Program-made: the position numbers and the translations under genes | Source of the DNA: an uncultured delta proteobacterium | Lineage (GTDB): Bacteria; Myxococcota_A; Polyangia; Polyangiales; Polyangiaceae | NCBI GenBank assembly: GCA_963826085.1 | Contig: CAWGVN010000002.1 | Coordinates: 1-64,000, forward strand | Length of the DNA: 64,000 nucleotides | Direction of reading: 5' to 3' | Notes under the pieces: model-generated | Database searches by the model: none | What the model was told of the DNA's origin: nothing | Seen by the model: the letters and a program-made list of their open reading frames with translations, nothing else | Shown here: positions 6,201 through 25,934 of the stretch, in pieces | How the letters are laid out: every line of letters begins with the position of its first letter | Numbering within the stretch: position 1 is the first letter of the stretch

Positions 6201-6587
6201 GCGCTGTTCCTGGGAGGGTCGGCAGCGCCGGAGAGTTCGTCGGAATCGCCTGCAGTCGGCGGCACGACGAGTGCCGGAGAGCGAACGGTCGCCATGGGGC
6301 GTAACATGGCCGACAGAGTCATCCCGTACGCACAAAAAAACGGCTACGACTGGTACAAGGGCACGCCCGACTGGGTGCCGCGAGGCGCGATCGAAAAGCT
6401 CTCGCCGAAGGCACTTGAGAGGACAGACCTTTGGTTCAACAAGCGCTGGATCAATCGCGAGATGCGCACCGGCTCGAGGATCATGGACATCGGCGAACCC
6501 CCCGGCTATCCACCGAGCACCTTCTACGACATGGAGCGTCAGCAGGTCAGCGGGTACTGGAACTACTTCTTTGACTTCCAGCCATGA
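3264..6587 (+). CDS. Rhs-repeat protein, C-terminal portion: YD repeats, Rhs core ending in DPLGL, then an unclassified C-terminal (toxin) domain of about 295 aa
   Basis: YD-repeat-rich translation (YDSLGRMVLN, YAYNDNGDLVGTSDARG, YYDRAGRLQAEDYF, YTYDPVNNPTEIHDW, RYTYDAGDDRVVKE). Rhs core hallmark ...YYFGKRYLNPFLGRWVSADPLAVHG...AYAYVHGQVLQNVDPLGLDP at about 5540 to 5705. The tail after that has no recognizable known toxin fold. The ORF-track start (3066) lies inside the IS, so the frame is taken from the IS end. Confidence 0.75.
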   Translation: MDGTVTLASRYHALSSDHWDAADLEPGPHQGTYASVRKDGHGRTVETTERIHSGGAIEERYVDTQYLPTGEPEVIKRRRGGDQVTRWMRYDSLGRMVLNAEPDTTVNFNPSPGADPDTMKAWRYAYNDNGDLVGTSDARGCGDDFYYDRAGRLQAEDYFPCTSTQPPYSPPDFSTLSGIEVYYLYDQLPSGSAPAWLQPPSGISGAYTKGRLVGVFDRASTTWSSFDQRGRVTQSSVRAAKPSPTDVSADFADRYASRWYTRRFAFDAADREVGATTGAKVAELQGLPASAGGIAGDTSLVTTSYTSRGTVEQVGGSYQRDSATPNVGNIQRTADGLITELHYGDLADTTTHYSYDNRRRLSSVQTYRGPPSAWSGGISGGTSYQPSADPNGAPLTFQLLLQDTDYTYDPVNNPTEIHDWRNPAEWPAGAKPVTQKIQYDDLYRATRIDYQYAAGDDRWTDPFEDEDSSVKPSDTRRAKPSPHVGFDNRVLYQSYKYDWLGNTTATDDDAGGFYDRSLGTVENGTPDAGPYQLKSAQGTDKGTTDRSGSLQTMYDAAGNLTRLDVRRAGPCLPKGSNCNERFDYRWDEVGRLVEALRWDGAPGDITTIPPDNTADAHLRYTYDAGDDRVVKEAIDRTGQSRYTVYLFSTLELRRASWLSDHYGDTAATEVAYLSAHGVTLGRLWYEPDASVPTNGAAKLHVFYQLGDALGSTSVVLDQATGELVERGTFEGYGATESDYRPSRWNAYRADRRFTGKEEDVEVGLYYFGKRYLNPFLGRWVSADPLAVHGLKADLNAYAYVHGQVLQNVDPLGLDPTNESSPQVQSNEDATVSNAYGEKVTVLQEVTITGSPARSQAVPAPDPLPVTSAPNKGGGGGASGTGEEFGQGGSYGTYRGRVPGSVIPTPAWQIQLLGNGPKSFVDFAKLAGKNVAEGEVIAVGCFYNPSLCKLVGGALMVSSSPSTPTAQGAKDREAQFWFGGALFLGGSAAPESSSESPAVGGTTSAGERTVAMGRNMADRVIPYAQKNGYDWYKGTPDWVPRGAIEKLSPKALERTDLWFNKRWINREMRTGSRIMDIGEPPGYPPSTFYDMERQQVSGYWNYFFDFQP

Positions 6588-6820
6588 TCCGTATCCGTCG
6601 TTGCCAACCAAGCGCCCTTCTGCCTCGCCATCGCTACGAGGTCGAACTCGTTGATCCCGGGACGGGTGAAGTGACTTGGCGGAGGAAGACCACCACACCT
6701 GTCACGCTCATCGACCGGCACGTCGGCGTGGCAGAAGCCTGGGCCCTGGTCCATGCCGCCGACAGGGCATGGGACGAGGGCTCAAGTCAGTGGATCAGTT
6801 TGCCGGGGTCAGCCGGATGA
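6584..6820 (+). CDS. small ORF immediately downstream of the Rhs toxin (putative cognate immunity protein)
   Basis: A 78-aa ORF whose ATG overlaps the Rhs stop (ATGA), which is the usual toxin/immunity translational coupling. No family recognized; the assignment is by position only. Confidence 0.4.
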   Translation: MIRIRRCQPSALLPRHRYEVELVDPGTGEVTWRRKTTTPVTLIDRHVGVAEAWALVHAADRAWDEGSSQWISLPGSAG

Positions 6821-7086
6821 GTGTGGTCGAGACCGGTGTGAGTGTCCACCGACCTTTCATAGTCGTTTCGAGCCGATCCTGCTTCGGAAAATCCGGTTCC
6901 CCAGGTCGCCGGTCTCGCGCCGGACGACGCTCGATCGCAGGCCAGACGGATCCCGCCAGCCGCATCCATCATGCAGAGGCTCGATGAAACGATGACGCCG
7001 CTCTGTTCAGGCCGCTTCGCGCAATTCGACGACGGGCAGTTCCGCTCGTCCCTCGTGCGACGTGATCACGAGCGCGAGCGGAGCTG

Positions 7087-7506
7087 TCACCTGTCGCCGC
7101 AAGTGCTTTCGGGGCCTTCCCCGCGCCCGCACCTCGAGCGGCGGCCGCCCGGCGGCAGGAAGCCGGCCTTCGAGCACCTCGGCGGGAGTCGCGCCGCCGA
7201 GCGATTCGTGCGGCCGATGCTCGAGAGGGCGACGGCCGCCGGCAGGCTGCCGAGCACCAGCCCGGCCTTCAGCCGGAGCACGCGCCAGCCGGCCCTGGCG
7301 AGCGCGCGGTCCCGCCGCGCGTCCAGCCGCTCCCGCCCGCGATGCCAACCGCCGTCGACCTCCACGATCAACTTCACGGCGGGAGCGGCGAAGTCCGCGA
7401 TGTATTCCCCGACCACGACCTGCCGCCGGAATTGCACGCCGAGCTGCCGCCGGCAGAGCGCGGACCACAGCGCGCGCTCCGAAGCCGACGGCACCGCCCG
7501 CATCTC
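7087..7506 (-). CDS. DUF559 family protein (Vsr-like endonuclease domain)
   Basis: ...ERALWSALCRRQLGVQFRRQVVVGEYIADFAAPAVKLIVEVDGGWHRGRERLDARRDRALARAGWRVLRL is the DUF559 signature (E...D...H...R). Start taken at the internal M (MRAVPSA). The C-terminal tail may be shorter than the ORF. Confidence 0.65.
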   Translation of the reverse strand, partial: EMRAVPSASERALWSALCRRQLGVQFRRQVVVGEYIADFAAPAVKLIVEVDGGWHRGRERLDARRDRALARAGWRVLRLKAGLVLGSLPAAVALSSIGRTNRSAARLPPRCSKAGFLPPGGRRSRCGRGEGPESTCGDR

Positions 7507-7943
7507 TGCAGCGCGCGAAGCGAGCAGTGTGGAACGATCAGTGCCGACAGGACGATGATGACGATGCATGCGAGCCTCCTTCCCGGCGGAGCGGCCGGGC
7601 TACGCCCCCTCCGGCGCAGGCCGCATGACACGCCCCGGATCCGCACAATGCACTCGCAACGCCGCACTGCGCCGCGCACCGCCCGACAGAGCTGGGCGTG
7701 GCGGGCGGCGTGCGCCGCTCCCGCGGAGCCCGGTCGCTCCGCCGGGAAGGGGACACAGCACCTCTATCGACCCTGCTTGGCGCAGGCGTATCATCGTTGG
7801 CGTCCTGCCGCCGAGCTGGACGCGCCCCGCTCTGTGACAATCGGATTGCGACTCCGGGCAGCCGGCACGGACTGGCTGCCCGGCACGCCGGCTCCCCGGC
7901 CTTCGATGCGGCGCGAGAGCGGGAAACGGGGTACTCTTCACCT

Positions 7944-8171
7944 ATGAACGCTCGCAAGATCCGCGTCGAGAACGGTCGCATCAAGCTGGACGAGCCGACG
8001 ACGCTGCCTGATGGTGCCGAGGTGGAACTGGTGATCCTCAGTGGCGACGAGCTCGACGACGAGGAGCGAACTCGACTGCATGCATCCCTGGAGCGTGCGC
8101 TCGACGACGAGGACGCAGGCCGTGTCGTGGACGCGGACGAATTCCTCGCACAAATCCGCGCCGGGACGTGA
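7944..8171 (+). CDS. type II antitoxin (ParD/Phd-like addiction-module antidote component)
   Basis: A 75-aa acidic protein MNARKIRVENGRIKLDEPTTLPDGAEVELVILSGDELDDEERTRLHASLERALDDEDAGRVVDADEFLAQIRAGT. Its stop overlaps the GTG start of the downstream ParE-like toxin (GTGA). Confidence 0.5.
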   Translation: MNARKIRVENGRIKLDEPTTLPDGAEVELVILSGDELDDEERTRLHASLERALDDEDAGRVVDADEFLAQIRAGT

Positions 8172-15210: not shown

Positions 15211-15526
15211 GGCGGCGCCGGCGTCCGCCGGAGCGTGTCGTCGAGGGACGCCCGCGTCTGCACCTGGGTCATCGGGCGCACCCCACCAGGTCCCGGAGCA
15301 GGCGCGCCCCACACGTCCAAGCAGCTCCCCGGGCGGAGGCGCCGGATAGGGCTGGCAAGCCGCAGCGTCACGGGACGCAAAAGTAGCAAGTGGATTTCAA
15401 AGTCGTTTGCAAGAGATCCCGCAGACCTTGCGAACTGACGCAGATATGGCGGCGCAGCGAGTGGCGGCCGGCCCAAAAATGAACTTGATTTTCATTTTCA
15501 AATCTGCGAGCAATCCGATCCTGGAG

Positions 15527-16498
15527 ATGGGTCGAGCCATGTTGACGTTCCGCCGGCCTCCGGGGCTGGTCGCGGAAAAGCCATCGGGGGCGCGGAATGC
15601 GCTGGGAGACTACCTCGCGCGCGAGGCGCGGATGCTCCTGGCTTCGGCCGAGGCGTTCCGTTCGCTTTCCGACACGTTGTTCGCGGCGGGCGCGCCGTGC
15701 GCGCTGACCGGTCGCGCGGCGTGCGCGGCCAACGATCGCGCGCGCCACGCCGAGGTCGTGACACGACTGGCGTCGCGCTACGGCGGACGGCCGGCTCAGC
15801 TGCGCGTCGCGAGGCCGAAGCCACAAACGCTGCTCGAGCTCGCACTCGACAACGCCGCGGAGGGTTGCGTCCGCGATACGTACGCAGCGCTGCTCGCGTC
15901 GTGGCAGTCCGATCACGCGCGCAGCCGTGCCATCTCGGAGGCGATGGCGATGATCGCGCGCGACGGCACCCGCCACGCAGCGCTCGCGTGGGCGCTGTCG
16001 GACTGGGCCATGCCGCAGCTGCCGCGGCGGGATCAGGCGCGCGTTCGACGCGCGTGCATGGATGCGGTGGCGAGGCTCGAGCGCAGCGTGCGCGAGCCGG
16101 ATCCGTCGCTGGTCCGCCGCGCCGGGCTTCCGACGCGCGCCGAACAGCGGACGTTGATCGCGGAGCTGTGCCGCATGTTGTGGGACAAGCCCGACTGCAC
16201 GCGGAAGTCGAAGAACGCGCGGCGTCCGGAGCTGCTGACCCGGGGCCGGGTAGGCCGTCCGCCGGCGCGTTGGGGCCGGCTGGCGCTCTATGTCGAACAG
16301 CAGGGGCTATCGCGGCAGAGCGTCGCCCAAGAGCTCGGGATTTCCCGCAAGTTCCTCGACAACATCTGCCGCGAGGTGCGGCGCCCGGGGCCCGCGCTGG
16401 CCGAGCGGATCGAGCGGCTCACTCAGGGCAAGGTGAGCGTCGCCTATCTGATGGCGCTGCCGAAACACGACCGCCGCGGCCCCAAGCCGCGGCGGTGA
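15527..16498 (+). CDS. hypothetical protein, ferritin-like/four-helix region with C-terminal HTH-like segment
   Basis: Long ORF preceded by an AT-richer promoter-like stretch. There is an internal helical region with E/H-rich pairs (AEGCVRDTYAALLASW...AISEAMAMIARDGTRHAALAW). The C-terminal LSRQSVAQELGISRKFLDNICREV is HTH-like. Start uncertain. Confidence 0.4.
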   Translation: MGRAMLTFRRPPGLVAEKPSGARNALGDYLAREARMLLASAEAFRSLSDTLFAAGAPCALTGRAACAANDRARHAEVVTRLASRYGGRPAQLRVARPKPQTLLELALDNAAEGCVRDTYAALLASWQSDHARSRAISEAMAMIARDGTRHAALAWALSDWAMPQLPRRDQARVRRACMDAVARLERSVREPDPSLVRRAGLPTRAEQRTLIAELCRMLWDKPDCTRKSKNARRPELLTRGRVGRPPARWGRLALYVEQQGLSRQSVAQELGISRKFLDNICREVRRPGPALAERIERLTQGKVSVAYLMALPKHDRRGPKPRR

Positions 16499-16505
16499 GC
16501 GCAGC

Positions 16506-17156
16506 TCACGGACACTGATCGCTGGTCGGACAGGGCGGCGAGTTGTTCGCACCCGGACAGCACACCCAGACGCAGTCGGCGCTCGAGCCCACCGTCTCCG
16601 TCGTGCTGCTCTTGGCGGACTGTCCGCTTCCCGTGAGCGTGCCGGGATCGCCCGACCCCTGGTCGCCGTCGGTGTCGTGCCAGGGAGCGTTGCCGAGGAC
16701 GAAGCCGGATGCCGCGGTCGCCGCCAGATCGACCTGTCCCGGATCGACGCACACGGTCTGCTTCGCGGCGGTGCTTGCCGTCCCGCCGGCGACCGATACC
16801 GAGCACCAGTTGAGGTAGTTCTTCACGGTGAGCGGAACCTGGCTGCCGGTGCAGCCGCCGCCGCTGCCGCCGGTTCCAGCACTTCCGCCTGCGCCCGAGC
16901 TCCCGCCCGCGCCCGAGCTTCCGCCCGTGGAGCTGCCGGCCGTGCCGCCGCTTCCGCTGCCGCTGCTGCCGCCCGTGGAGCTGCCAGCGGTTCCGCCGGT
17001 GCCGCTGCCCGAGCTGCCGCCGCTGCCGCCGCTGGAACCCCCGGTGCCGCCGCTGCTGCTGCTCTTCTTCGAGCTGCTGCTGCAGCCGACGGTCGTTCCG
17101 AGCGCCAGCACAAAACCAAGAGAAGATACGTAGGCCAGGTTCCTCAAGTTGATCAT
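16506..17156 (-). CDS. Gly/Ser-rich lipoprotein with Cys-rich C-terminal domain
   Basis: MINLRNLAYVSSLGFVLALGTTVGC (lipobox), a GS-rich linker of about 80 aa, then a C-terminal module with 8 Cys. It is the only coding-looking part of the 1150-aa antisense ORF in the track. Confidence 0.6.
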   Translation of the reverse strand: MINLRNLAYVSSLGFVLALGTTVGCSSSSKKSSSSGGTGGSSGGSGGSSGSGTGGTAGSSTGGSSGSGSGGTAGSSTGGSSGAGGSSGAGGSAGTGGSGGGCTGSQVPLTVKNYLNWCSVSVAGGTASTAAKQTVCVDPGQVDLAATAASGFVLGNAPWHDTDGDQGSGDPGTLTGSGQSAKSSTTETVGSSADCVWVCCPGANNSPPCPTSDQCP

Positions 17157-17291
17157 GGTCAAGAGTGTCCTCTCTAGCCCGGAGGCGGTCAACTCCGCGT
17201 CGGGTCGCATCGAACGGACGCGCAAGTACCCGGCAACGCTGCGAATTGTCCGATGAGGTCGGGCCCGGCTCCAATCCTGTAGACTGGGTCC

Positions 17292-20003
17292 GTGAAGCTT
17301 GTCGGGTTCTGGTTGCTGCCGCTCGCCATTGTGCTTTCGGCCTGCTCGAACCTGGGAGAGATCCAGCCCGGCGTCTGCGGCAACGGGATCGTGGATCCGG
17401 GCGAGGACTGCGACGGGCCCGGTGCGGGCTGCGGCACGCTGGCCTCCGACCATCCCTGCCGCTTCGTGTGCGGCGCCGCGGCGGGGAGCTCCAATGCGAC
17501 CTGCCCGACCGGGTACGGTTGCGGTCACGACGGCGTGTGTCGCGCGGCCACCGGAAGTTTCGCGGAGCCGCAGGCGCTGCCCGGCGACCAGACCGTGGCC
17601 TTCTCCGTCGGCGACGTCGACGGCGACGGCAACGACGACATCGTGGGCGTCAACCAGGCCGGGTGGATCGGCGTGGACTATCTCGACGCAGGCGGGCTTG
17701 CCGCCACGGCGCGCTCGCACAGCGTGCAGTTGCCGTTTGCGCTGGGTCAGCTCACCGACGGCGACACGCGAGCCGACGTCGCCCATCTGCCGGGAGCCTC
17801 GGTCGGTGTGCTCACCGGCGGAGCCGATCGCAGCCTGACGCCGCAGGCCTACGCCGGCTTTGCAGTTCCCGCTTCCGGTTCCGGCAGGACGATCCTGTTC
17901 ACTCTCGACGCTGCCTACGTGCGGCCCGGGGAACAGGACTTCGAGAAGTTCGGCGGTCAGGAGTTCCTGGCCTGGACCGGTTCGCTGCTGTTCGTGCCGA
18001 TTGCGAACCAGAATCTGTTCTCCGTGGACGAGGCGAAGAGCACGCTCGCGCCCCGCCTCGCCGCGGGAGCCGTCCCCACCGGAAACATCGACGAGCGGGA
18101 GCAGACGTCGCCGTGCGACGAGTTCGTGCTCGCGGACCAGGGGTCGCCGGAAGTGTCGGTGTACACGCCGTGCAGTGGACCGGGCGAGCAGTGGAACACG
18201 GATCCGCACGCCTATCCGAAGGTGGAGCTGCCCGGTGGGGCGAAGGTGGGCGAAGGCGCGCTGCTCACCCGGATCAATCCGGGCGACAAGCACCTCGACC
18301 TGGTCATCGCCAGCCAGCCGTATCCCAACCCCGACCCGAGCAGCCCGATCTCGCAGGTCGCCGACATCTACGTCGCGTTCGGCGTCGGCGACGGCACGTT
18401 CAACAGCACTCCGCCGCCGGTCACGACGCCGGACCAGACGGCTGCGCTGCTGTTTCCCGGGATGTCGGGCCTGCCGCTCGCCACCGGGGATCTGAATGGC
18501 GACGGCGTCGACGACTTCGTGTTCCCGGACAGGGTGGTGGAGAGCGACCTGAAGACGTGCGCGGGGTGCTGGACCACCGTGCTGTCCGGTGAGGGATGGG
18601 CCCAGGCGCAGATCGCCGACTTCAACGGCAACGGCATCCCCGACTTCGTCACTGTCCCCATTGCAGGGCGCTACGTCGAGTTCTTCAACGGCACCGGCGG
18701 ACCGCTGTTCAACAAGTCCGAGATCCAGACCAACGGATACCCCAACGCGCTGACCCAGGGTGACTTCGACGGCAATCTGATCCCCGATATCGCAGTGGCG
18801 GAGGCCGGCGGCGTCGACGCTTGCCCTGGCACCGATCGCTCGGATTCCGTGTCGATCCTGTTCGGAAACGTGGGCGGGCCGCTGGGCTCTCCCCAGAGCA
18901 TGGGAAAGCTCGACTGCATTTCCCAGTTCGTGGCGGGCAACTTCTTCTTCGCCGCCGGAGTCGACTGGACTTCCGATCTCGCGGCGCTCGACGTGGCAGC
19001 GGACGGCAGCGAGCATGTCGCGCTGTTCGGGGGCTCGACCGCTCGCCAGCTCAGCGCGCCATTTCCACTCGATTCGACGGATTCGGTCAATTCCGATCTG
19101 GGGATCTCCATCCAGGCCGGCCAATTCGACAGCGACAAGTCGCACAGCGATCTGGCAGTGCTGGCGCTCGACGGGGCTCCGCCCCGCAAGCCGCGGCTGT
19201 GGGTGCTGCCGTCCACCGGAACCGCCAATCTGGAGAACGGATATCCCGCTCCGAACCTGGACCCGAAGACCGTACCGCTCGACGTGTGCTCGGCGCTCAC
19301 CGCGGAAGCCGACTTCGACGGCGATGGGATCGACGAGATGGTGCTGCTGGGGCGATCGTCCAAGGCGGGCGGTCTGGTCGCGATCGCCAAGGTCGATCCG
19401 AAGACCAAGGAGCTCCACATCGCCGCCACCCATCCGGTCTCCGACGTCGACTTGATCCAGCCCTCCATCTTCCGCTTCCAGTGCGCCGTCCGTCGCGATC
19501 CCCAGAATCCGGGCGTCGCGGACGCTCTGGATTCCACGCAGGTCCAGGTCACCGACATCGACGGAAAGAAGCAGATTGTCGTTCTGGGCGCGGCCGGCGG
19601 TTCGACGCCGCAGTCTGGACACGTGCTGCGCGCATTCTCCTGGCAGGGCGCCGGGCACGACATCGTCGAGTCGACCATTACGGCGCCGTCCGGTGTCGAT
19701 CCGCTGGGCTTTGCGGTCATGAACGCGGACGCCGACCCTGGGCCGGAAGTCGTGCTGGTGACTATCGACGGCGTGTTCGTCTCCAATCTGCAGGTCGCCT
19801 CCGACGGGTCGATGAAGCTCGGGCCGCTGTACTCGCCGGCGGGTGGCGAGCCGATCGCGCCGAACATGGTCATGCCGGGTATCGGCATCGAGGGCGTGAT
19901 CGGCGTCCGTCCGGGCGACTTCAACGGCGACGGCGTCCCGGATTTCGTCGTCGGGCACCAGACCGGGTTCAACGTCTACTACGGAGCTCCGGAGGTGCCA
20001 TGA
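17292..20003 (+). CDS. FG-GAP/VCBS-repeat lipoprotein with N-terminal Cys-rich repeat
   Basis: Signal peptide plus lipobox (IVLSAC), then Cys-rich GVCGNGIVDPGEDCDGPGAGCG (myxococcal Cys-rich repeat-like). Multiple FG-GAP-like Ca-binding loops follow: GDVDGDGNDDIV, GDLNGDGVDDFV, ADFNGNGIPDFV, GDFDGNLIPDIAV, ADFDGDGIDEMV, GDFNGDGVPDFVV. Confidence 0.8.
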   Translation: MKLVGFWLLPLAIVLSACSNLGEIQPGVCGNGIVDPGEDCDGPGAGCGTLASDHPCRFVCGAAAGSSNATCPTGYGCGHDGVCRAATGSFAEPQALPGDQTVAFSVGDVDGDGNDDIVGVNQAGWIGVDYLDAGGLAATARSHSVQLPFALGQLTDGDTRADVAHLPGASVGVLTGGADRSLTPQAYAGFAVPASGSGRTILFTLDAAYVRPGEQDFEKFGGQEFLAWTGSLLFVPIANQNLFSVDEAKSTLAPRLAAGAVPTGNIDEREQTSPCDEFVLADQGSPEVSVYTPCSGPGEQWNTDPHAYPKVELPGGAKVGEGALLTRINPGDKHLDLVIASQPYPNPDPSSPISQVADIYVAFGVGDGTFNSTPPPVTTPDQTAALLFPGMSGLPLATGDLNGDGVDDFVFPDRVVESDLKTCAGCWTTVLSGEGWAQAQIADFNGNGIPDFVTVPIAGRYVEFFNGTGGPLFNKSEIQTNGYPNALTQGDFDGNLIPDIAVAEAGGVDACPGTDRSDSVSILFGNVGGPLGSPQSMGKLDCISQFVAGNFFFAAGVDWTSDLAALDVAADGSEHVALFGGSTARQLSAPFPLDSTDSVNSDLGISIQAGQFDSDKSHSDLAVLALDGAPPRKPRLWVLPSTGTANLENGYPAPNLDPKTVPLDVCSALTAEADFDGDGIDEMVLLGRSSKAGGLVAIAKVDPKTKELHIAATHPVSDVDLIQPSIFRFQCAVRRDPQNPGVADALDSTQVQVTDIDGKKQIVVLGAAGGSTPQSGHVLRAFSWQGAGHDIVESTITAPSGVDPLGFAVMNADADPGPEVVLVTIDGVFVSNLQVASDGSMKLGPLYSPAGGEPIAPNMVMPGIGIEGVIGVRPGDFNGDGVPDFVVGHQTGFNVYYGAPEVP

Positions 20004-21220
20004 AGCGGCGCGCGGCTATCCTCGGGACTCTTCTGCTGGCGCTGGCCTCGCCGGCGCGCGCCGACACGGCGCGGGCGTACTTCGACATCGGCGCCAAGGC
20101 GTACGAAGCTGGCCGCTACCTGGACGCCGCGCACGCGTTCGAGGAGGCCTACCGCCTGTCGAAACGGCCGGGCCTGCTGTTCTCGCTCGGACAGGCGAAC
20201 CGCATGGAGTTCTTCGCCAGGAGCGATCCCGCGCGGCTGAGGGACGCGGTCCATTACTACAAGCTCTACGTCCAGCAGGCTCCGTCCGGGGACCGCGTCA
20301 AGGATGCAACGGCCGCGCTGACCACGCTCGCGCCCCTGCTGGAGAAGCTGGGCGACGCAGCGTCCTCGCCGTACGCCCCGGCCGCGTCCGGCAAGCCGCG
20401 CGTGATGATCTCGTCGCCGACCGAGGGCGCGCAGATCACGTTCGACGGCAAGCGCGTGAGCGACCCGTACATGGCCGAGGTCGCCGCCGGCAAGCACCAG
20501 GTCGTGCTTTCTGCGCCGGGATACAAGGACTACCGGCGGGAGATCGTCGTGGACGAGAAGAACGGCGTGCCCCCGCTCGATATCGCGCTTGAAGAGAAGC
20601 CCGCTCGGCTCGTCATCAACGCGCCGGAGGGCGCCGACGTGACCATCGACGGTCGGCTCCAGGGTACGACGCCGCTTCCGCCGCTCGGCGTGGCTTCTGG
20701 AACGCACTTCATCGCGGTGACTCTCAACGGTCACGGGGCGTTCAGCCGGACTGTCGCCCTCCAGCGCGGCGAGCAGAAGACCCTCGACGCCGAGCTGCAT
20801 GTTACCGGGCAGCGCACGGCGAGCTGGGTGCTGATGGGCGTTGGCGCGGGCGGCATCGTCGCCGGCGGCGTGCTCGGCTACGTCGCGCTGAAGAAGGATT
20901 CGGATGCCAAGGCGATCCAGAACGCCGACTCGTCGCAAGGCAATCTGCCGCCCGGCGAGCTGGGCCGCTACAACTCGCTGCGCCAGAGCCGCGACAACTT
21001 CCGGCTCGCTTCCGTCATCGCTTTCGGCGCCGGCGCCGGCGTGGCCGCAGTCGGCCTGGTCCTGCACGCATTCGACCAGCCGAAACCGCCGCTGCCTCCT
21101 CTCGAGCAGACGACGCCCGGTGCGCCCAGACGCACCACTCCCGAGCCCGGCTTCGAGATCAGCGCCGCGCCGCTCTGGCAGCCGGGGTTTGTCGGCGCGT
21201 CGGCGGGCGGGCGGTTCTGA
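20000..21220 (+). CDS. PEGA-domain protein with signal peptide and C-terminal TM helix
   Basis: The start overlaps the upstream stop (ATGA). Signal peptide MKRRAAILGTLLLALASPARA. Two PEGA-like modules (VMISSPTEGAQITFDGKRVSDPYMAEV...LSAPGYKDYRREIVV; LVINAPEGADVTIDGRLQGTTPLP...GTHFIAVTLNGHGAFSRTV), then a hydrophobic helix (WVLMGVGAGGIVAGGVLGYVAL). Confidence 0.75.
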   Translation: MKRRAAILGTLLLALASPARADTARAYFDIGAKAYEAGRYLDAAHAFEEAYRLSKRPGLLFSLGQANRMEFFARSDPARLRDAVHYYKLYVQQAPSGDRVKDATAALTTLAPLLEKLGDAASSPYAPAASGKPRVMISSPTEGAQITFDGKRVSDPYMAEVAAGKHQVVLSAPGYKDYRREIVVDEKNGVPPLDIALEEKPARLVINAPEGADVTIDGRLQGTTPLPPLGVASGTHFIAVTLNGHGAFSRTVALQRGEQKTLDAELHVTGQRTASWVLMGVGAGGIVAGGVLGYVALKKDSDAKAIQNADSSQGNLPPGELGRYNSLRQSRDNFRLASVIAFGAGAGVAAVGLVLHAFDQPKPPLPPLEQTTPGAPRRTTPEPGFEISAAPLWQPGFVGASAGGRF

Positions 21221-21223
21221 ACG

Positions 21224-22138
21224 TCAGGCGATCACGTCCGAGAACAATCCGCTGGAGACCCCGTTCGAAAACCAGGTCATGACGCGCGCGGCCGCCTCCG
21301 TCTCGCTGGCCTCTCCGAGCAGCGGAGCGACGCGCTCGAGCGCATCGCCGAGCGATTCGCCCGCGGCGAGCGCTTCGAACAGCGCCGCCATCGCCGGCTC
21401 GAGCTCCATGCGCCATATCGTCGCGCCCGTGCGGTAGACCGCAACGCTGGTAGCCCCAGCGGCGGGAACCGCGGGCGACCCGCCGCTGCGGAACGCCTGC
21501 AGATAGGCGTTCGCCGGATAGTCCAGCTTCAGGATCCGGAGCGAGGGATTGGCGACCAGGCGCGCCTCTCCCCAGGCGTCCGCGGGCACGCGCGCCAGAT
21601 CTTCCGGCGTGATCACGCTCGAGGTCGGCGCGTGGATGACGAGCACGATCGCCCACTCCAGGCTCGCGAGGTCCGCGGCGAAGCCGAGTTGCTCGTCGCG
21701 ACACAGCCCGGACATGTGCTGCCCGAACACGTTCAGGTTCGGCCCGGTCGACGGGAAGCGCGCGATGTACCTCCTGCACAGCGCGTTGAAGCGCTCCTCG
21801 CCGAGGTGGTGCTGGAGCACCGGGTAGTCGTCGGCGAGGCAGTCGACAAGCCGCGCGTGATAGCCGCGGCGGTAGATCTCCAGGCGCTCGAGCGAGCTGA
21901 GCGCTCTGCTGGGCGTCACGAGCGCGGCGGCAGAGCGGTCGTCGACGGGCGCCGGCTCCGACTCCGCCGTGGTGATGATCGCCTCGAACCACTGCTGCTG
22001 CGCGCGCAGGTCGAGCTTTGCCGGGAGCCATGCCGGAGCCGAGCCGTGGCGGGCGTGTGCGGGAACCTCGAGGTGCGCGGGCGTGGCGCTCGCGCGCTCG
22101 TGCGTGCCGATCGAATCCGCGGTGGCCTGCCGCTTCAC
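21224..22138 (-). CDS. DUF2063-family protein (MbnC/HvfC-like partner of DUF692)
   Basis: GTG start overlaps the DUF692 stop (GTGA). The N-terminus has ...LDLRAQQQWFEAIITTAESEPA...ERLEIYRRGYHARLVDCLADDYPVLQHHLGEERFNALCRRYIARFPS, the pattern I recall for DUF2063 N-terminal domains that always follow DUF692 genes. Confidence 0.7.
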   Translation of the reverse strand: MKRQATADSIGTHERASATPAHLEVPAHARHGSAPAWLPAKLDLRAQQQWFEAIITTAESEPAPVDDRSAAALVTPSRALSSLERLEIYRRGYHARLVDCLADDYPVLQHHLGEERFNALCRRYIARFPSTGPNLNVFGQHMSGLCRDEQLGFAADLASLEWAIVLVIHAPTSSVITPEDLARVPADAWGEARLVANPSLRILKLDYPANAYLQAFRSGGSPAVPAAGATSVAVYRTGATIWRMELEPAMAALFEALAAGESLGDALERVAPLLGEASETEAAARVMTWFSNGVSSGLFSDVIA

Positions 22139-22965
22139 GCGCTCGCTCCGACGAACTCGTGCGCCCGGAGCGCCTCCGCGTGGGTCTCCTCGAGGGACGG
22201 GATATCCACGTCCCACTCCAGCAGCACGCTGGCTCCGCCGGCCCGCTTGTGGGCGACGGCGAGCAGCTCCCACACCGGATCGATGACGGGGCCGATGTGC
22301 GAATCGATGATGTGCGTGCCGAAGTCCGTGTGGCCCGCGACGTGGAACTGGATCACCCGCTCGTAGGGTACGGCGTTCAAGTACTCCATCGGATCGAAGC
22401 CGTGGTTCTTCGAGGAGACGTAGACGTTGTTCACGTCGAGCAGGATCGCGCAGTCGGCGTCTTCCGCCAGGCGTCCGAGGAATTCCCACTCGCTCATGCT
22501 GGCGCCGGTAAGCTCGGCGTACGTGGACGGGTTCTCGAGCGCCAGCGGCGCGCCGAGGAAATCCTGGACCTCCCGCACGCGCGCTGCGACGTGCGCGAGC
22601 GCTTCCTCCGTGTAGGGCAGGGGAAGCAGATCGTGCGTGTTCCTGCCGGCGACGCCCGTCCAGCACAGATGGTCGGAGACCCAGAGGGCGCCGACGCGGT
22701 CGCGCAGAGCACGGAGCTCGGCGAGATAGTCGCGATCGAGCGGATCCGTCGAGCCGATGGACAGCGACACGCCGTGCATCACGACGGGATACGCGCCGGC
22801 GATCGCGTCGAGGTAGTCCAGCGGGCGGCCGGACGTGTGCATGTAGTTTTCGCTGATGATCTCGAAGAAGGCGACGGGCGGCCGATCCTCGACGATGCGC
22901 TGGTAGTGCTTCGTCCTCAGGCCGAGCCCGGCTCCGAGATCGGGCAGATCGAATCGCTTCTTCAT
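22135..22965 (-). CDS. DUF692-family protein (MbnB/HvfB-like multinuclear non-heme iron enzyme, TIM-barrel)
   Basis: MKKRFDLPDLGAGLGLRTKHYQRIVEDRPPVAFFEIISENYMHTSGRPLDYLDAIAGAYPVVMHGVSLSIGSTDPLDRDYL...WVSDHLCWTG...LALENPSTY...ILLDVNNVYVSSKNHGFDP...IQFHVAGH are hallmark DUF692 blocks. Confidence 0.85.
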   Translation of the reverse strand: MKKRFDLPDLGAGLGLRTKHYQRIVEDRPPVAFFEIISENYMHTSGRPLDYLDAIAGAYPVVMHGVSLSIGSTDPLDRDYLAELRALRDRVGALWVSDHLCWTGVAGRNTHDLLPLPYTEEALAHVAARVREVQDFLGAPLALENPSTYAELTGASMSEWEFLGRLAEDADCAILLDVNNVYVSSKNHGFDPMEYLNAVPYERVIQFHVAGHTDFGTHIIDSHIGPVIDPVWELLAVAHKRAGGASVLLEWDVDIPSLEETHAEALRAHEFVGASA

Positions 22966-23033
22966 GGGGCTCGAGCCGGACCGCACCGGCGTCTCCGGTG
23001 CGGTCCGTCCCGGATGCGATCAGCCGATGCCGA

Positions 23034-23309
23034 TCAGTTGCCGCCCGAGTCGCCGCCGCCCGTGTCGCTGCCGCCGCTCGAATCGTCGCCGCCGCTCTTC
23101 ATGCCCGTGCAGGAGTGCTTCTCCGGTGCCGGGGCCGGCGCTGCTCCCATTCCGCTGCCCGTGCAGGAGTGCTTGGCCGGCGCGGCCGCGGGTGTCGCGT
23201 CGCTGCCCGAGGGCGTGTTCGGTTGCGGGGTGGCGCCGCCGCCACAACCCGTGGCTCCCGCCAGGATCCCGCCGACTGCCGCCGTCAAAAGAGCATTCTT
23301 GATGTTCAT
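23034..23309 (-). CDS. small Cys-motif lipoprotein, candidate DUF692 substrate/precursor peptide (paralog 2)
   Basis: A 91-aa protein. Signal and lipobox MNIKNALLTAAVGGILAGATGC are nearly identical to paralog 1. The core carries two KHSCTG motifs (AKHSCTGSGMG...EKHSCTGMKSGG) and a Gly/Asp/Ser tail. It lies immediately upstream (same strand) of DUF692. Confidence 0.6.
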   Translation of the reverse strand: MNIKNALLTAAVGGILAGATGCGGGATPQPNTPSGSDATPAAAPAKHSCTGSGMGAAPAPAPEKHSCTGMKSGGDDSSGGSDTGGGDSGGN

Positions 23310-23558
23310 GTTCCCTCTTGTCAGGTTGCGTGAGTGCGCGCTCCGGCTTGGAGCTTGCCCCGGTATGTACGGGCCAGGCGGCAAGCCGTTACATCTGATC
23401 TCGCACTTCTCGTTCGATTCGAGGCTTGTCCAACGATTGACGCCCGTCAATCTGTATCTGATCTGGCGCCGCCTGCGCGCGGGGCGCCGGAGCCTGGGTG
23501 GTGGCGCCTGGAGCGCCGAGCACGGAGCGCGGCGCCCAGGCGCTGGAGTCGGAGGCGA

Positions 23559-23819
23559 TCAACCGTGGCAGCCGCCCTGGCCCTTGCAGTCGTTCATGCC
23601 CTTGCAGGCATGCGAGTCGGTCTTGCAGCCGCCCTGGCCCTTGCAGTCGTTCAGGCCCTTGCAGGCGTGCTTGGCGGGTGCTGCGGCCGGTGCCCCGGCG
23701 GGAGCGGCGGTGCCCGCGGACGGCGCGTTCGGCGCTGGGGTGGCGCCGCCACCGCAACCCGTAGCTCCGGCGAGGATTCCGCCCACAGCCGCTGTCAACA
23801 GAGTGCTCTTGATGTTCAT
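23559..23819 (-). CDS. small Cys-motif lipoprotein, candidate DUF692 substrate/precursor peptide (paralog 1, DUF2282/HvfA-like core)
   Basis: An 86-aa protein MNIKSTLLTAAVGGILAGATGC..., with core AKHACKGLNDCKGQGGCKTDSHACKGMNDCKGQGGCHG. That core is two tandem HACKG-x-NDCKGQGGC units and resembles the conserved Cys block (..CyG.akaGkNDCa...sCaGq..) of DUF2282 peptides that pair with DUF692/DUF2063. Confidence 0.7.
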   Translation of the reverse strand: MNIKSTLLTAAVGGILAGATGCGGGATPAPNAPSAGTAAPAGAPAAAPAKHACKGLNDCKGQGGCKTDSHACKGMNDCKGQGGCHG

Positions 23820-23963
23820 GGAGTTTCCTCTTCAGTTGATGAGGCAAGAATCCGCCTCGTGTCCACTTGTCTACGCAGAAGATGCTTATGCGGATCGCCC
23901 GGAGCCGTTACAGGGGACGCTCTGCATTCCGGCTGGCGAGGCTCGCCGCGGCCGCGGGAGCCG

Positions 23964-25400
23964 TCAATCCGAACGCGGTGAGACGATGGCTTTGCGGATC
24001 TTCGCGTCGGGCGCGGAATCGTCGAAGACAACCGCCTTGCCCGCCGCGCGCACGCCCAGCTTCTGGAACAGGGCACCCAGATCCGCGCTGCCCGGCGAAA
24101 GCGCGAGCCGGGCGTACAGATCGCGCAGCACATGGGTGCCCGTGGCCCGGTCGCCGACCTCCAGCACCTTCGAAATATCCCAGTAGTTCTGGTTGGTAGC
24201 GCCGGTCGCCCCGATGGCTCTGAGCACCGTGTCGAGCGAACGGGTGTTGCGCGTGCGCTCGCGGATTTCCACGTCCGCGAGCAGACAGAACAGCGCGCCT
24301 CCCCAGTAGGTGCGGCCCCAGGTCCGGGTCTTTTCCAGGCCCTGATCCCCCGGTCCCGGCAGGCCCTGGGGCAGCCCCTCGACCAGATCTCCCCACACCT
24401 TCTGCGGCGTCACGAGCCCGACACGTACGCGTGCGATGGGCTCCACGTACGTCGCCAGACCCTCCATGAGCCAGGCGTGCCGCCAGCCGAGGTCCGGGAA
24501 ATTCACGTGCAGGAGCTCGTGCGTCACGACCCAGTCGTCGCGCGTGTTGTCCGCCGTGACGCCGTCGCCGACGCGGATCAAGGTTGCGGGTCCTCCGCCG
24601 CCGAGCGTCAGGCCGCGCGTCGGCCCCTTCGAGCCCTTCATCACGAGGATGAGGGCGCGGTGCGCCGGCGGATGTCCGAGGTAGTACTTCGCGACCGCGC
24701 CCGTCGAGGCGTGGACCCACGAGAACACGTCGCGGTCGCTGAGCGGGAGGCGCGCCGGCGCGATGCCGACCTGGATCGTCGCGTCGCCGGCCGCGACGCT
24801 GCCCACGTGCACGGGACCGAACGCCGCAAAGCTCGAATCCTCCATGTCATCGACGTCCATCTCGAAGCCGTCCCCGCCGCGATGCACGCCCGTGATGAAA
24901 TGCGAGCCGGCGCCGGGGCTCACGTAGAACTCGAATTCCGAACCGCTCGGCGCCCGTGACGGATGGAGCAGCCACGACGACGGGGGCGCGAACACCACGT
25001 TGCCCGAAGCTATCGCGGTGTCGGGCGCGTCGATCGTGTCCGCTGCCCGCATGAGATCGAATCGATAGCGGACGCGGCAACCCTGCACGCACGGCACGGG
25101 CCACGCGGCGCCGCGACGCGCCACGGGGATCCAGCGCGATCCGCTTGCCACCGCGACGTCGTGCACGAAGGGTTGCGAGTCGGCGTCGATGGCGAGGCCG
25201 GGCGCCGGAGCGGAGCCGAAGCTCGCTTCCACGGCCAGCTCCTGGGCTTGCCGGGCGCTGACGGCATAGCGCCATGCCACGTGCGGCCCGGCAGGACGTG
25301 GTGGGTCGCGTGGCGCCCTGCTCGTGCAACCCAGCGTCACGACGACCAGCCCGGAAACCAGGAGGCCCCGGGCCGTGCGCTGTAACGCTCTCTTGCCGGC
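23964..25400 (-). CDS. putative zinc metallopeptidase lipoprotein (HExxH...E)
   Basis: The motif THELLHVNFPDLGWRHAWLMEGLATYVE (HExxH + Glu) sits in a roughly 480-aa ORF. An N-terminal signal-like KRALQRTARGLLVSGLVVVTLGC carries a lipobox. No canonical start codon was found just upstream of the signal peptide, so the 5' end is uncertain. Confidence 0.5.
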   Translation of the reverse strand, partial: AGKRALQRTARGLLVSGLVVVTLGCTSRAPRDPPRPAGPHVAWRYAVSARQAQELAVEASFGSAPAPGLAIDADSQPFVHDVAVASGSRWIPVARRGAAWPVPCVQGCRVRYRFDLMRAADTIDAPDTAIASGNVVFAPPSSWLLHPSRAPSGSEFEFYVSPGAGSHFITGVHRGGDGFEMDVDDMEDSSFAAFGPVHVGSVAAGDATIQVGIAPARLPLSDRDVFSWVHASTGAVAKYYLGHPPAHRALILVMKGSKGPTRGLTLGGGGPATLIRVGDGVTADNTRDDWVVTHELLHVNFPDLGWRHAWLMEGLATYVEPIARVRVGLVTPQKVWGDLVEGLPQGLPGPGDQGLEKTRTWGRTYWGGALFCLLADVEIRERTRNTRSLDTVLRAIGATGATNQNYWDISKVLEVGDRATGTHVLRDLYARLALSPGSADLGALFQKLGVRAAGKAVVFDDSAPDAKIRKAIVSPRSD

Positions 25401-25442
25401 GGCGTATGGACAGGAGACGCTCCTCCAGAAGAGGGAACCACC

Positions 25443-25934
25443 ATGGGACTCAAGAAGATCGCAGACACGCTGGTAGAAAAGCTCGAGAGCATCGGCTGGG
25501 TGGCGCCGTTGTTGGGCCGCCTCTCGGTGGGGCTTCTCTTCCTTTCCACCGGATGGGGGAAAGTGCATCACGTCGACAAGATCACGCACTTCTTCCAGAC
25601 CCTTGGTATTCCCGCTCCGGGGTTCAACGCGGTGTTGGTAGGCTATAGCGAGCTCATCTGCGGTTCGCTCCTGGTTATCGGGCTCCTCACGCGACTCGCT
25701 ACGATTCCGCTCATCGTGAGTATGATCGTCGCGATCCTCACTGCCAAGCTCAAGAGCATCCACGGTCTATTCGATCTGGTGGGGGCCGATGAATTCACGT
25801 ATCTGTGCGTGCTCATCATGGTCGGCGTGATCGGCCCCGGGCTCTTGTCGCTCGATCATCTGGTCGCCAGGCGCCTCTGGCCGAAGTCCGGGGCTGCACC
25901 GGAGCGGGAGCCGGAGCGGCAGCAGGCGGAGTAG
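25443..25934 (+). CDS. DoxX-family membrane protein
   Basis: MGLKKIADTLVEKLESIGWVAPLLGRLSVGLLFLSTGWGKV... has four predicted TM helices typical of DoxX. Confidence 0.8.
   Translation: MGLKKIADTLVEKLESIGWVAPLLGRLSVGLLFLSTGWGKVHHVDKITHFFQTLGIPAPGFNAVLVGYSELICGSLLVIGLLTRLATIPLIVSMIVAILTAKLKSIHGLFDLVGADEFTYLCVLIMVGVIGPGLLSLDHLVARRLWPKSGAAPEREPERQQAE

Follow-up and report, generated by a model that had tools for sequence, protein, structure and literature searches.

A probable Buf2-type bufferin cluster with an anciently duplicated precursor gene in a Polyangiaceae-like myxobacterium

Genes of the locus

The stretch of DNA analyzed in this study (the window) comprises positions 1 to 64,000 of contig CAWGVN010000002.1 (assembly GCA_963826085.1), which comes from an uncultured delta proteobacterium, and our subject is a pair of small genes in it, here called precursor A and precursor B, together with the enzyme genes that follow them. 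Taken as a whole, the best explanation of our results is likely to be that the locus forms a Buf2-type cluster for bufferin (captophorin) biosynthesis in a Polyangiaceae-like myxobacterium, that its precursor gene was tandemly duplicated long ago, that the two copies have co-regulated promoters, and that precursor B still works. The gene order that we read is promoter, A and hairpin 1, then promoter, B and hairpin 2, then bufB and bufC, with a DoxX-family gene nearby behind a third promoter motif. The core features are the following.

23559-23819, minus strand: precursor A, 86 amino acids (aa), Buf2-type with six Cys, a lipoprotein-type signal peptide and lipobox Cys22; ribosome-binding site (RBS) GAGGA
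23504-23543, minus strand: hairpin 1, starting 16 nt after the stop codon of A; -40 kcal/mol, z = -4.4, with 0 of 200 shuffled sequences folding as well
23034-23309, minus strand: precursor B, 91 aa, the reduced paralogue of A with the same lipoprotein signal peptide and two core Cys; RBS AGAGGGA
22972-23012, minus strand: hairpin 2, between B and the MNIO gene, with a 13-bp perfect stem; -46.1 kcal/mol, z = -4.9
22135-22965, minus strand: bufB, MNIO (DUF692) maturase, 276 aa; Pfam MbnB_TglH_ChrH (PF05114), E = 1.7e-105
21224-22138, minus strand: bufC, DUF2063 partner of the RiPP recognition element type; Pfam DUF2063, E = 2.3e-19, 69.9 bits against a cut-off of 27.2

The identity of the cluster follows from its downstream genes, since an MNIO, a DUF2063 partner and a DoxX protein make up the gene set of the bufferin (captophorin) clusters, which produce peptides made by the ribosome and modified after translation (RiPPs) (PMC11626156, PMC12452194, PMC13097082). 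The bufB product scored 346.1 bits against the NCBIfam model MNIO_BufB (NF050167), which has a cut-off of 310, and is thereby classed as a BufB. It also matched PDB entry 3BWW at 3.3e-46, with its ExD motif EWDV aligned with ERDF of that structure. The bufC product has the DUF2063 domain, the NGO1945-like C-terminal domain and the position after the MNIO gene that characterize a PME type 1 partner; its score was marginal for NGO1945_C (25.2 bits, cut-off 27) and 55.7 bits for the HvfC model, against a cut-off of 142. The GTG start codon of bufC overlaps the TGA stop codon of bufB (GTGA, 22135-22138), which suggests translational coupling of the two genes. For bufB itself no obvious Shine-Dalgarno sequence is seen, and the region around its start is base-paired within hairpin 2. 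The nearest loci were found in metagenome-assembled genomes of Polyangiaceae/Myxococcales, and the closest MNIO among the GTDB representatives returned was 80% identical.

The original prediction, which was made from the DNA letters and their open reading frames, described two small minus-strand genes as RiPP-like precursors. Both genes are present, their coding nature is supported by codon-position GC (GC3 of 0.82 and 0.84), and the precursor reading is borne out by the location of A and B directly upstream of an MNIO above the NCBI cut-off for BufB and of its DUF2063 partner. The system as such is already known under the name of bufferins, including the oddity of a signal peptide in place of a leader, the lipoprotein variants and the tandem precursors. 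Because lipoprotein-type Buf2 precursors, lipidated MNIO RiPPs and tandem precursors have all been published, the locus as a whole belongs to a known kind. What appears to be new is the reduced two-Cys paralogue B, which in sister genomes has taken the place of the canonical precursor, and the duplication unit that combines a promoter with a hairpin.

The two precursors and their shared signal peptide

Precursor A has what characterizes a Buf2 precursor, namely the six-Cys pattern, an N-terminal export signal and a position upstream of MNIO and DUF2063 genes. Its homologues number 732 and are mostly from Polyangiaceae. In an alignment of 77 sequences the residues C53, C59, C65, C72, C78 and C84 of A are invariant and form the pattern CKGxNxCKGxGGC twice over. 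As a separate observation, the two half-domains of A (xHACKGxNDCKGQGGC; 23568-23620 and 23625-23677, minus strand) are 91% identical in DNA, with a synonymous divergence (dS) of about 0.12, and are thus far more alike than A is to B (dS of about 0.85), which suggests intragenic homogenization or a much later internal duplication. The exact A protein is not in a collection of 15 billion proteins, where the best match is 85% identical and B of the same genome is present; gene A was apparently missed in the deposited annotation of the source genome.

Precursor B holds both of its core Cys residues in the motif K-H-S-C-T-G, with a Met directly after the second motif and one after Ser-Gly following the first, and it ends in a Gly/Ser/Asp tail that varies in length and sequence among its relatives. 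The two Cys are the equivalents of CysI and CysIV of A, so that four of the six have been lost. Buf2 precursors are defined by six or twelve Cys, and B has neither number and no match to the BufA2 hidden Markov model (HMM); judged by its sequence, B is a descendant of the Buf2 family and not a member of it by the family definition.

A and B begin with M-N-I-K, continue with a hydrophobic stretch and end this region in L-A-G-A-T-G-C, and their first 28 residues differ at two positions (S5N and T6A). The original prediction had counted 26 almost exactly shared residues; the near identity stands, and the string that it quoted is 28 residues long. The shared N-terminus is a predicted lipoprotein signal peptide of the Sec/signal peptidase II (SPII) type, with the lipobox Cys followed by a Pro/Ala tether. 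The original prediction had spoken of a signal-peptide leader; what both proteins carry is a predicted Sec/SPII-type N-terminus and not a classical cytoplasmic leader. The lipobox Cys is more than 90% conserved in the family, and the hydrophobic region AAxxG...G...C is near-invariant across the 77 homologues, which is unusual for a signal peptide. In one study the signal peptide of Buf1 was dispensable for modification upon overexpression (PMC11626156). Later, preliminary data from the same group assigned the signal peptide to the recognition sequence (PMC12452194), and the near-invariant hydrophobic core fits this published suggestion that it contributes to recognition by BufBC. Lipoprotein signal peptides occur in about 16% of Buf2 precursors (PMC12452194), and lipidated MNIO RiPPs ("DAG-RiPPs") have been shown experimentally in other subfamilies (PMC13056109). 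The proposal that modification takes place before export agrees with the published model for bufferins and DAG-RiPPs (PMC11626156, PMC13056109), and the enzymes of this locus have no signal peptide.

The likeness of A and B goes past the signal peptide into the Pro/Ala linker and the first core motif, AAPAKH(A/S)C(K/T)G, and the second Cys of B aligns with the fourth Cys of A, which together indicate that the cores are homologous and that B is a reduced A. Beyond the leader region the likeness is weak (BLASTP of the cores alone, E = 4e-5). The idea of a conserved leader with diversified cores therefore needs to be amended: the leader has been kept, and the cores are homologous rather than freely diversified, B being A minus four Cys.

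Promoter motifs, hairpins and transcription units

For comparison we used three related loci in particular. Two of them, L001 (ERZ25039500 contig_22833, a 319-kb contig) and L002 (SRR31012008, a 2.2-kb contig), have B as the only precursor directly upstream of the MNIO gene, and the sole precursor of the third, L004, is of the A type and 85% identical to A. The upstream regions contain the following features, the promoter motifs being of a kind resembling those of extracytoplasmic function (ECF) sigma factors and sigmaF.

23961-23969, minus strand: upstream box GATTGACGG of A, overlapping the stop codon of the peptidase gene; the box is also found in L004, L001 and L002
23887-23911, minus strand: ECF/sigmaF-like promoter motif of A, GTAACG-N15-CATA
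23437-23452, minus strand: upstream box of B, in which GATTGACGG forms part of the longer, perfect palindrome TTGACGGGCGTCAA; L001 and L002 have it unchanged
23368-23392, minus strand: ECF/sigmaF-like promoter motif of B, GTAACG-N15-CGTA; kept in L001 and L002
25382-25406, plus strand: ECF/sigmaF-like promoter motif of the DoxX gene, GTAACG-N15-CGTA, ending 37 nt upstream of the start codon

The exact 9-mer of the upstream box occurs only twice in the 64 kb, before A and before B, each time 58-60 nt upstream of the GTAACG motif. Chance would give 0.04 matches to the pattern GTAAC[G/C]-N15-C[G/A]TA in the 64 kb; there are three, which lie before A, B and DoxX. Most of the Polyangiaceae loci that were inspected have a related pattern, G[TA]AAC-N16-CGTA, upstream of their precursor. 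In Caulobacter the sigmaF motif is GTAACC-N16-CGAA (PMC3511200), and sigmaF controls buf1 and buf2 under copper stress (PMC11626156). A scan for sigma70 and terminator consensus sequences gave one weak promoter-like site, which overlaps the start codon of B, and no terminator-like site. As the duplicated unit carries its own box, promoter and hairpin, and the same motif stands before DoxX, it is probable that A and B are transcribed as separate units under common regulation.

The spacer between A and B had been described as about 250 bp with palindromes. Its length is 249 bp, and palindromes are indeed present at 23503-23517 and 23532-23543; they turned out to be the two halves of one structure, hairpin 1. 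The folding of the spacer RNA that had been proposed as a check confirmed this hairpin, and the stronger hairpin 2 had been overlooked. The outer pairs of hairpin 2, which was also found by an inverted-repeat search, come within 3 nt of the MNIO start codon. Homologues of hairpin 2 follow A in L004 and B in L002. Hairpins lie 3′ of every precursor gene examined, with z from -1.5 to -5.9, and in a few of the relatives, for example L014, T-runs follow the hairpin. L001 and L002, which have no A at this place, both keep the 160 nt upstream of B, in which the box, the promoter motif and the palindrome TTGACGGGCGTCAA lie, and the sequence of hairpin 1 is conserved in neither. From this difference the spacer can be read as two parts, the 3′ hairpin of A and the promoter region of B itself.

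The original prediction placed A, B, bufB and bufC in effect in one operon driven from upstream of A, with the spacer hairpin acting as an attenuator or processing site that sets the amount of A. Several features speak for such an arrangement: the four genes share one strand and lie close together, hairpin 1 is stronger than chance would readily produce, and hairpins follow precursor genes throughout the family. A hairpin after the precursor gene is a common pattern in RiPP operons. Against it, B has a box and a promoter motif of its own within a region that is conserved where no A lies upstream, so that read-through from A is not needed, the sequence of hairpin 1 is not conserved outside the window, and the hairpin has no U-tract and gave no match when 22800-25600 was scanned with Rfam at E <= 1. 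We therefore regard the single operon as rather unlikely. The strong hairpin itself is real; the spacer as a whole is not an attenuator alone, since its distal 160 nt are the promoter region of B. The hairpin in the spacer is most likely a terminator or stabilizer of the A transcript, and a part for it in setting the stoichiometry is plausible. The single-operon model is also partly compatible with our preferred reading of two co-regulated units, as leaky termination and an internal promoter can coexist.

Precursor sets in related genomes and the function of precursor B

A comparison of orthologous loci with one and with two precursors, which had been suggested as a check, proved informative: B alone is present in L001 and L002, A alone in L004, and both in the window. 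Between the window, L001 and L004 the MNIOs share 85-87% identity, which together with the precursor sets shows that three architectures exist within one small clade. A DUF2063 gene follows the MNIO gene in L001, and the contig of L002 ends inside the MNIO gene. In L004 the A-type gene lies 65 nt from bufB. The layout of a reverse DoxX gene, peptidase, precursor A, MNIO and BufC is found in L004, L006, L009 and L011-L014, and partially in others; as these seven further Polyangiaceae loci show the full form, the layout with DoxX, peptidase and A is taken to be ancestral. The GH43 gene that flanks DoxX in the window stands upstream of B in the genomes with B alone, directly in L002 and with one unrelated gene between them in L001, from which it follows that DoxX, the peptidase and A were deleted in L001 and L002. 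More widely, 63 of the 81 related loci gave a precursor in our scan, and in these Buf2-like precursors precede the MNIO gene.

B is conserved in three genomes and is the sole precursor upstream of the MNIO gene in two of them, which argues that it is functional. In a collection of 5.8 billion proteins there are three B-type proteins, that of the window and two others (P0002 and P0003), and the motifs K[H/G]SC[T/S]G...KHSCTGMKSGG are invariant in the three. Further B-type genes were sought in metagenomes, where a protein-pattern scan gave 448 matches of which none was confirmed, and a DNA pattern for KHSCTGMK gave 36 matches, all by chance in unrelated contexts. An exhaustive HMMER search with the B core alone returned 19 matches, all of them large repeat proteins with the motif TPEAAPAKEGYTFSGW, and was set aside as spurious. 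The enzyme of the B-only system scores above the BufB cut-off (342 bits for the MNIO of L001), and its ratio of non-synonymous to synonymous divergence (dN/dS) against the window is 0.17, equal in effect to the 0.16 obtained between the window and the A-only L004; purifying selection thus still acts on the MNIO of L001, which argues that a system with B alone is functional. The residue after the Cys has been proposed to be read by the enzyme site following the catalytic Asp (PMC13097082). We looked for a B-specific change at this site and rejected it, as DAE stands there in L001, which has B alone, and equally in L004, which has A alone, against DVD in the window.

It could be argued instead that B is a decaying or non-RiPP paralogue that BufB leaves unmodified, either on the way to loss or kept as a small metal-binding lipoprotein with unmodified His, Cys and Met as its ligands. 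With two of the six Cys and no BufA2 match B falls outside the Buf2 definition, its C-terminal tail is variable in length and sequence, its clade is tiny at three sequences, and the loss of DoxX and the peptidase in the B-only genomes can be read as decay of the cluster. Moreover, in Caulobacter Buf2 it is CysII to CysV that are modified, and CysI, to which one of the Cys of B corresponds, forms a disulfide with CysVI, both remaining unmodified (PMC11626156). Decay is difficult to reconcile with the age of the duplication (dS 0.85), since the reading frame, RBS, promoter motifs and both Cys motifs of B have nevertheless stayed intact in three genomes, the blocks of its core have a dN/dS of about 0.2, and bufB and bufC have been kept directly downstream of B in L001, with the low dN/dS and the BufB score given above. 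We consider this alternative unlikely, and a little more so than the single operon. Since B has been kept upstream of a pair of enzymes that are under constraint, we think it slightly more probable than its opposite that BufB modifies B.

We put forward, as a possibility and tentatively, that B represents an undescribed minimal class of bufferin-derived lipopeptide, disordered and membrane-tethered, with two isolated His-x-Cys-x-Gly sites that would be converted to thiooxazoles by BufBC. Such a peptide would by itself have sufficed in the sister lineages to take over from the folded six-Cys bufferin, from DoxX and from the peptidase, and the window would then represent the intermediate state in which both A and B are present. 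If this is true, the same signal peptide on differing cores would be comparative evidence for its double role as the recognition leader for BufBC.

Age of the duplication

A repeat search found a 136-nt direct repeat, 23175-23310 against 23685-23820, with 76% identity and a spacing of 510 nt. The duplicated unit is about 510 bp long and comprises the GATTGACGG box, the ECF-sigmaF-like motif, a 5′ untranslated region (UTR) of about 70 nt, the RBS, the precursor gene and a GC-rich hairpin. Nucleotide alignment of the two genes, which had been proposed as a means of dating the duplication, showed it to be old. Among the 28 leader codons 12 of about 24 synonymous sites differ, compared with 2 of about 60 non-synonymous sites (dS = 0.85, dN = 0.034), and the shared PAAAPAKHxCxG block has a dS of 0.88. 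The dS between A and B exceeds that of the MNIO genes between genomes (0.55-0.65), the B genes of the window and L002 (dS = 0.37) are closer to each other than B is to A, and the flanks of A and B have diverged outside the motifs. These counts and comparisons establish that the duplication is old, that it is neither a recent segmental copy nor the outcome of recent gene conversion, and that the amino acids of the leader are under purifying selection.

The original prediction had itself named a recent segmental duplication including the flanks as the case that would undo its interpretation of the leader, the likeness then being a mere residue of the event with no selective meaning. The flanks were in fact duplicated, as box, promoter and UTR recur at the 510-nt spacing. 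This alternative is nonetheless very improbable, because the leader codons differ predominantly at synonymous sites, the dS between A and B is larger than that of the MNIO genes between genomes, the upstream regions have diverged outside their motifs and B is nearer to its L002 orthologue than to A; the flanks were duplicated, the event was not recent, and the leader has been kept by selection. More improbable still is that B belongs to the chryseobasin-related MNIO peptides (ChrA-like lipopeptides), of which myxobacterial examples exist (PMC13056109) and whose NCBIfam model ChrA_rel_RiPP weakly matched B (26 bits) and P0002 (19 bits), since both scores are below the cut-off of 40, P0003 gave no match, B lacks the defining CPACGMG motif and is demonstrably a paralogue of the Buf2 gene A, and the MNIO, which has 346 bits as a BufB and 38.7 bits as a ChrH (cut-off 600), is at 276 aa too short for the extra C-terminal domain of ChrH, so that the assignment was rejected.

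Accessory genes and other loci

Two further genes lie on the other side of precursor A.

23964-25400, minus strand: putative zinc metallopeptidase lipoprotein with an HELLH...E motif; start codon uncertain
25443-25934, plus strand: DoxX-family membrane protein (BufD/HvfX-like), divergent from the cluster; Pfam DoxX, E = 1.3e-19, 71.1 bits against a cut-off of 23.6

The DoxX protein scored 65 bits against the NCBIfam HvfX family, which is below the cut-off of 80. The peptidase matched Pfam Peptidase_M1 (E = 0.0066) and M61 (E = 0.042), in both cases below the cut-off. It stands between DoxX and the precursor in 10 Polyangiaceae loci (the window, L004 at 6112-7491, L005-L007, L009 and L011-L014), and it is missing along with DoxX and A from the B-only loci. 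In the window no ATG, GTG or TTG occurs within 45 codons upstream of its lipobox, and its start may reach into the promoter motif of DoxX. We consider it a possible lineage-specific accessory gene of the bufferin system, which could, for example, cut the peptide loose from the lipid anchor.

On the bufC side, the region 15350-21220 (plus strand) of the window is syntenic with 8119-9072 of L001 (HTH_3, HTH_25 and TPR genes). Between bufC and the HTH_3 gene the window is about 4.7 kb longer than L001 and holds a 903-aa FG-GAP/VCBS-like lipoprotein (17292-20003) and a TPR/PEGA-like gene (about 20003-21220).

Tandem Buf2 precursors were also seen in other loci, at 4573-4821 and 5132-5389 of L062 and at 1160-1441 and 1634-2047 of L034. 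The pair in L062 consists of two six-Cys precursors with an identical 28-residue leader and differing cores, and with these two loci the pattern of tandem genes with the same leader recurs in unrelated lineages. In four loci from Planctomycetota (L032, L040, L041 and L045, at about 7150-8050) a second, different Cys-rich precursor-like gene lies downstream of the MNIO gene in addition to the upstream one. A twin-arginine-like motif, x-R-R-x-F-x-K, precedes the hydrophobic stretch in 33 of the 63 Buf2-like precursors (loci L022-L084, open reading frames at about 5400-5900), mostly from Acidobacteriota, Planctomycetota and Verrucomicrobiota, with NRRDFNKL and DRREFTKI as examples. This suggests that these precursors use Tat instead of Sec for export; among the papers searched, none joined twin-arginine, MNIO and RiPP.

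Discussion

A number of our own results weigh against the explanation that we prefer, in which the locus is a Buf2-type cluster with an old duplication, co-regulated promoters and a working B. With regard to the precursors, A scored 47.9 bits (E = 1.2e-12) against NCBIfam BufA2 (NF050166), and A and all of the lipobox-type Polyangiaceae homologues tested fall at 44-54 bits against the cut-off of 60. The lipobox A-T-G-C is atypical in having Ala at position -3 and not Leu, Val or Ile, and an AlphaFold2 model of A built from 77 sequences was uninformative, with a mean pLDDT of 51.8. With regard to transcription, the promoter pattern was built from the regions upstream of A and B, which leaves the DoxX match and the other loci as independent instances of it; a scan of 10 candidate small open reading frames of the window found no sigma or anti-sigma gene, including a sigF/nrsF pair; and, as no U-tract follows the hairpins of the window, these do not have the form of canonical intrinsic terminators. 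Finally, B keeps the position of CysI, the residue that escapes modification in Caulobacter Buf2, and has, after Cys, a Thr where the "Cys-Lys" substrate group (PMC13097082) has its defining Lys, both of which make the action of BufB on B uncertain.

The closest known system is bufferin 2 of Caulobacter vibrioides (BufA2-BufB2-BufC2; Buf_6/12Cys, the "Cys-Lys" captophorins), which shares with the window the order of precursor, MNIO and DUF2063 partner. The doubled six-Cys pattern of A (CKGxNxCKGxGGC x2), its N-terminal export signal and an MNIO that passes as BufB are likewise common to both (PMC11626156), and the promoter motif of the window resembles sigmaF-dependent promoters (PMC11626156, PMC3511200), although with a spacing one base different and with CGTA instead of CGAA as the -10 element. 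In contrast to the Caulobacter system, the window has a lipoprotein-type signal peptide, two precursor genes, an attached DoxX and M1-like peptidase, and a precursor B with only two Cys that are followed by Thr and not by Lys. The DAG-RiPPs DybA and NedA described by the van der Donk laboratory (PMC13056109) resemble the precursors of the window in having a signal peptide that ends in a conserved Cys and an MNIO neighbor, and lipidated bufferins were predicted in the same study. However, lipidation of DAG-RiPPs was shown for peptides of the chryseobasin and oxazolin types and not for Buf2 (PMC13056109), and the A-T-G-C lipobox of the window is a predicted one.

With the oxazolin/fontiphorin/gonophorin group (HvfA/FonA) B shares a probably disordered structure and repeated motifs with a single Cys (x-x-C-G). 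Pairs of MNIO and PME1 convert EGKCG-repeat captophorin motifs to thiooxazoles for copper binding (PMC13097082). The motif of that group, however, is E-G-K-C-G, with Lys before the Cys and many repeats, whereas B has two copies of K-H-S-C-T-G; the MNIO of the window scores 346 bits as BufB and 258 bits as HvfB (cut-off 360); and, unlike the EGKCG family, B descends from a Buf2 gene. The tandem precursors known among bufferins (PMC12452194), to which the pairs in L062 and L034 can be added, are like A and B in that one enzyme pair acts for several precursor genes with a common leader. They differ in that the L062 and L034 pairs keep the full set of Cys, whereas B has lost four of them and has outlived the original gene in sister genomes.

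The mechanism that we envisage is drawn from the published work on bufferins and DAG-RiPPs, and it is by analogy that we infer the conversion of Cys to 5-thiooxazole and the binding of copper at this locus. Under metal (copper) stress one alternative sigma factor would turn on A, B-bufB-bufC and DoxX together. BufB and BufC would then convert precursor Cys to 5-thiooxazoles in the cytoplasm, after which the conserved N-terminus, possibly also a part of the BufBC recognition sequence, would route the peptides through Sec and the lipoprotein pathway (Lgt, LspA and Lnt). The mature products would be tethered to the membrane through Cys22 and the flexible Pro/Ala linker and would bind copper in the periplasm. 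The product of A would be an ordinary one, with four thiooxazoles and one disulfide, and that of B most likely small, disordered and lipid-anchored, with either two thiooxazoles or His/Cys/Met ligands. B would be able to replace A, as in the two related genomes that lack DoxX, the peptidase and A and keep B-bufB-bufC. The hairpins after the precursors are most likely leaky terminators or stabilizers of the 3′ end that would make precursor mRNA more abundant than enzyme mRNA, and hairpin 2 may in addition occlude the start region of bufB.

Bufferins/captophorins are the largest group of RiPPs made by MNIOs and a widespread system of copper defense. The locus touches on how the enzyme pair recognizes a precursor that has an export signal instead of a leader, on how Cys residues are chosen and on the role of DoxX, and the clade constitutes a natural experiment on all three, as one enzyme pair is found with a six-Cys substrate, with a two-Cys derivative that has the same signal peptide, or with both. 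If B is not modified, the locus would amount to one more lipidated Buf2 cluster that has a degenerate paralogue. Should B be modified, it would be a minimal substrate for defining recognition and the selection of Cys, and the folded domain, the disulfide, DoxX and the peptidase would be dispensable for at least one function of the system.

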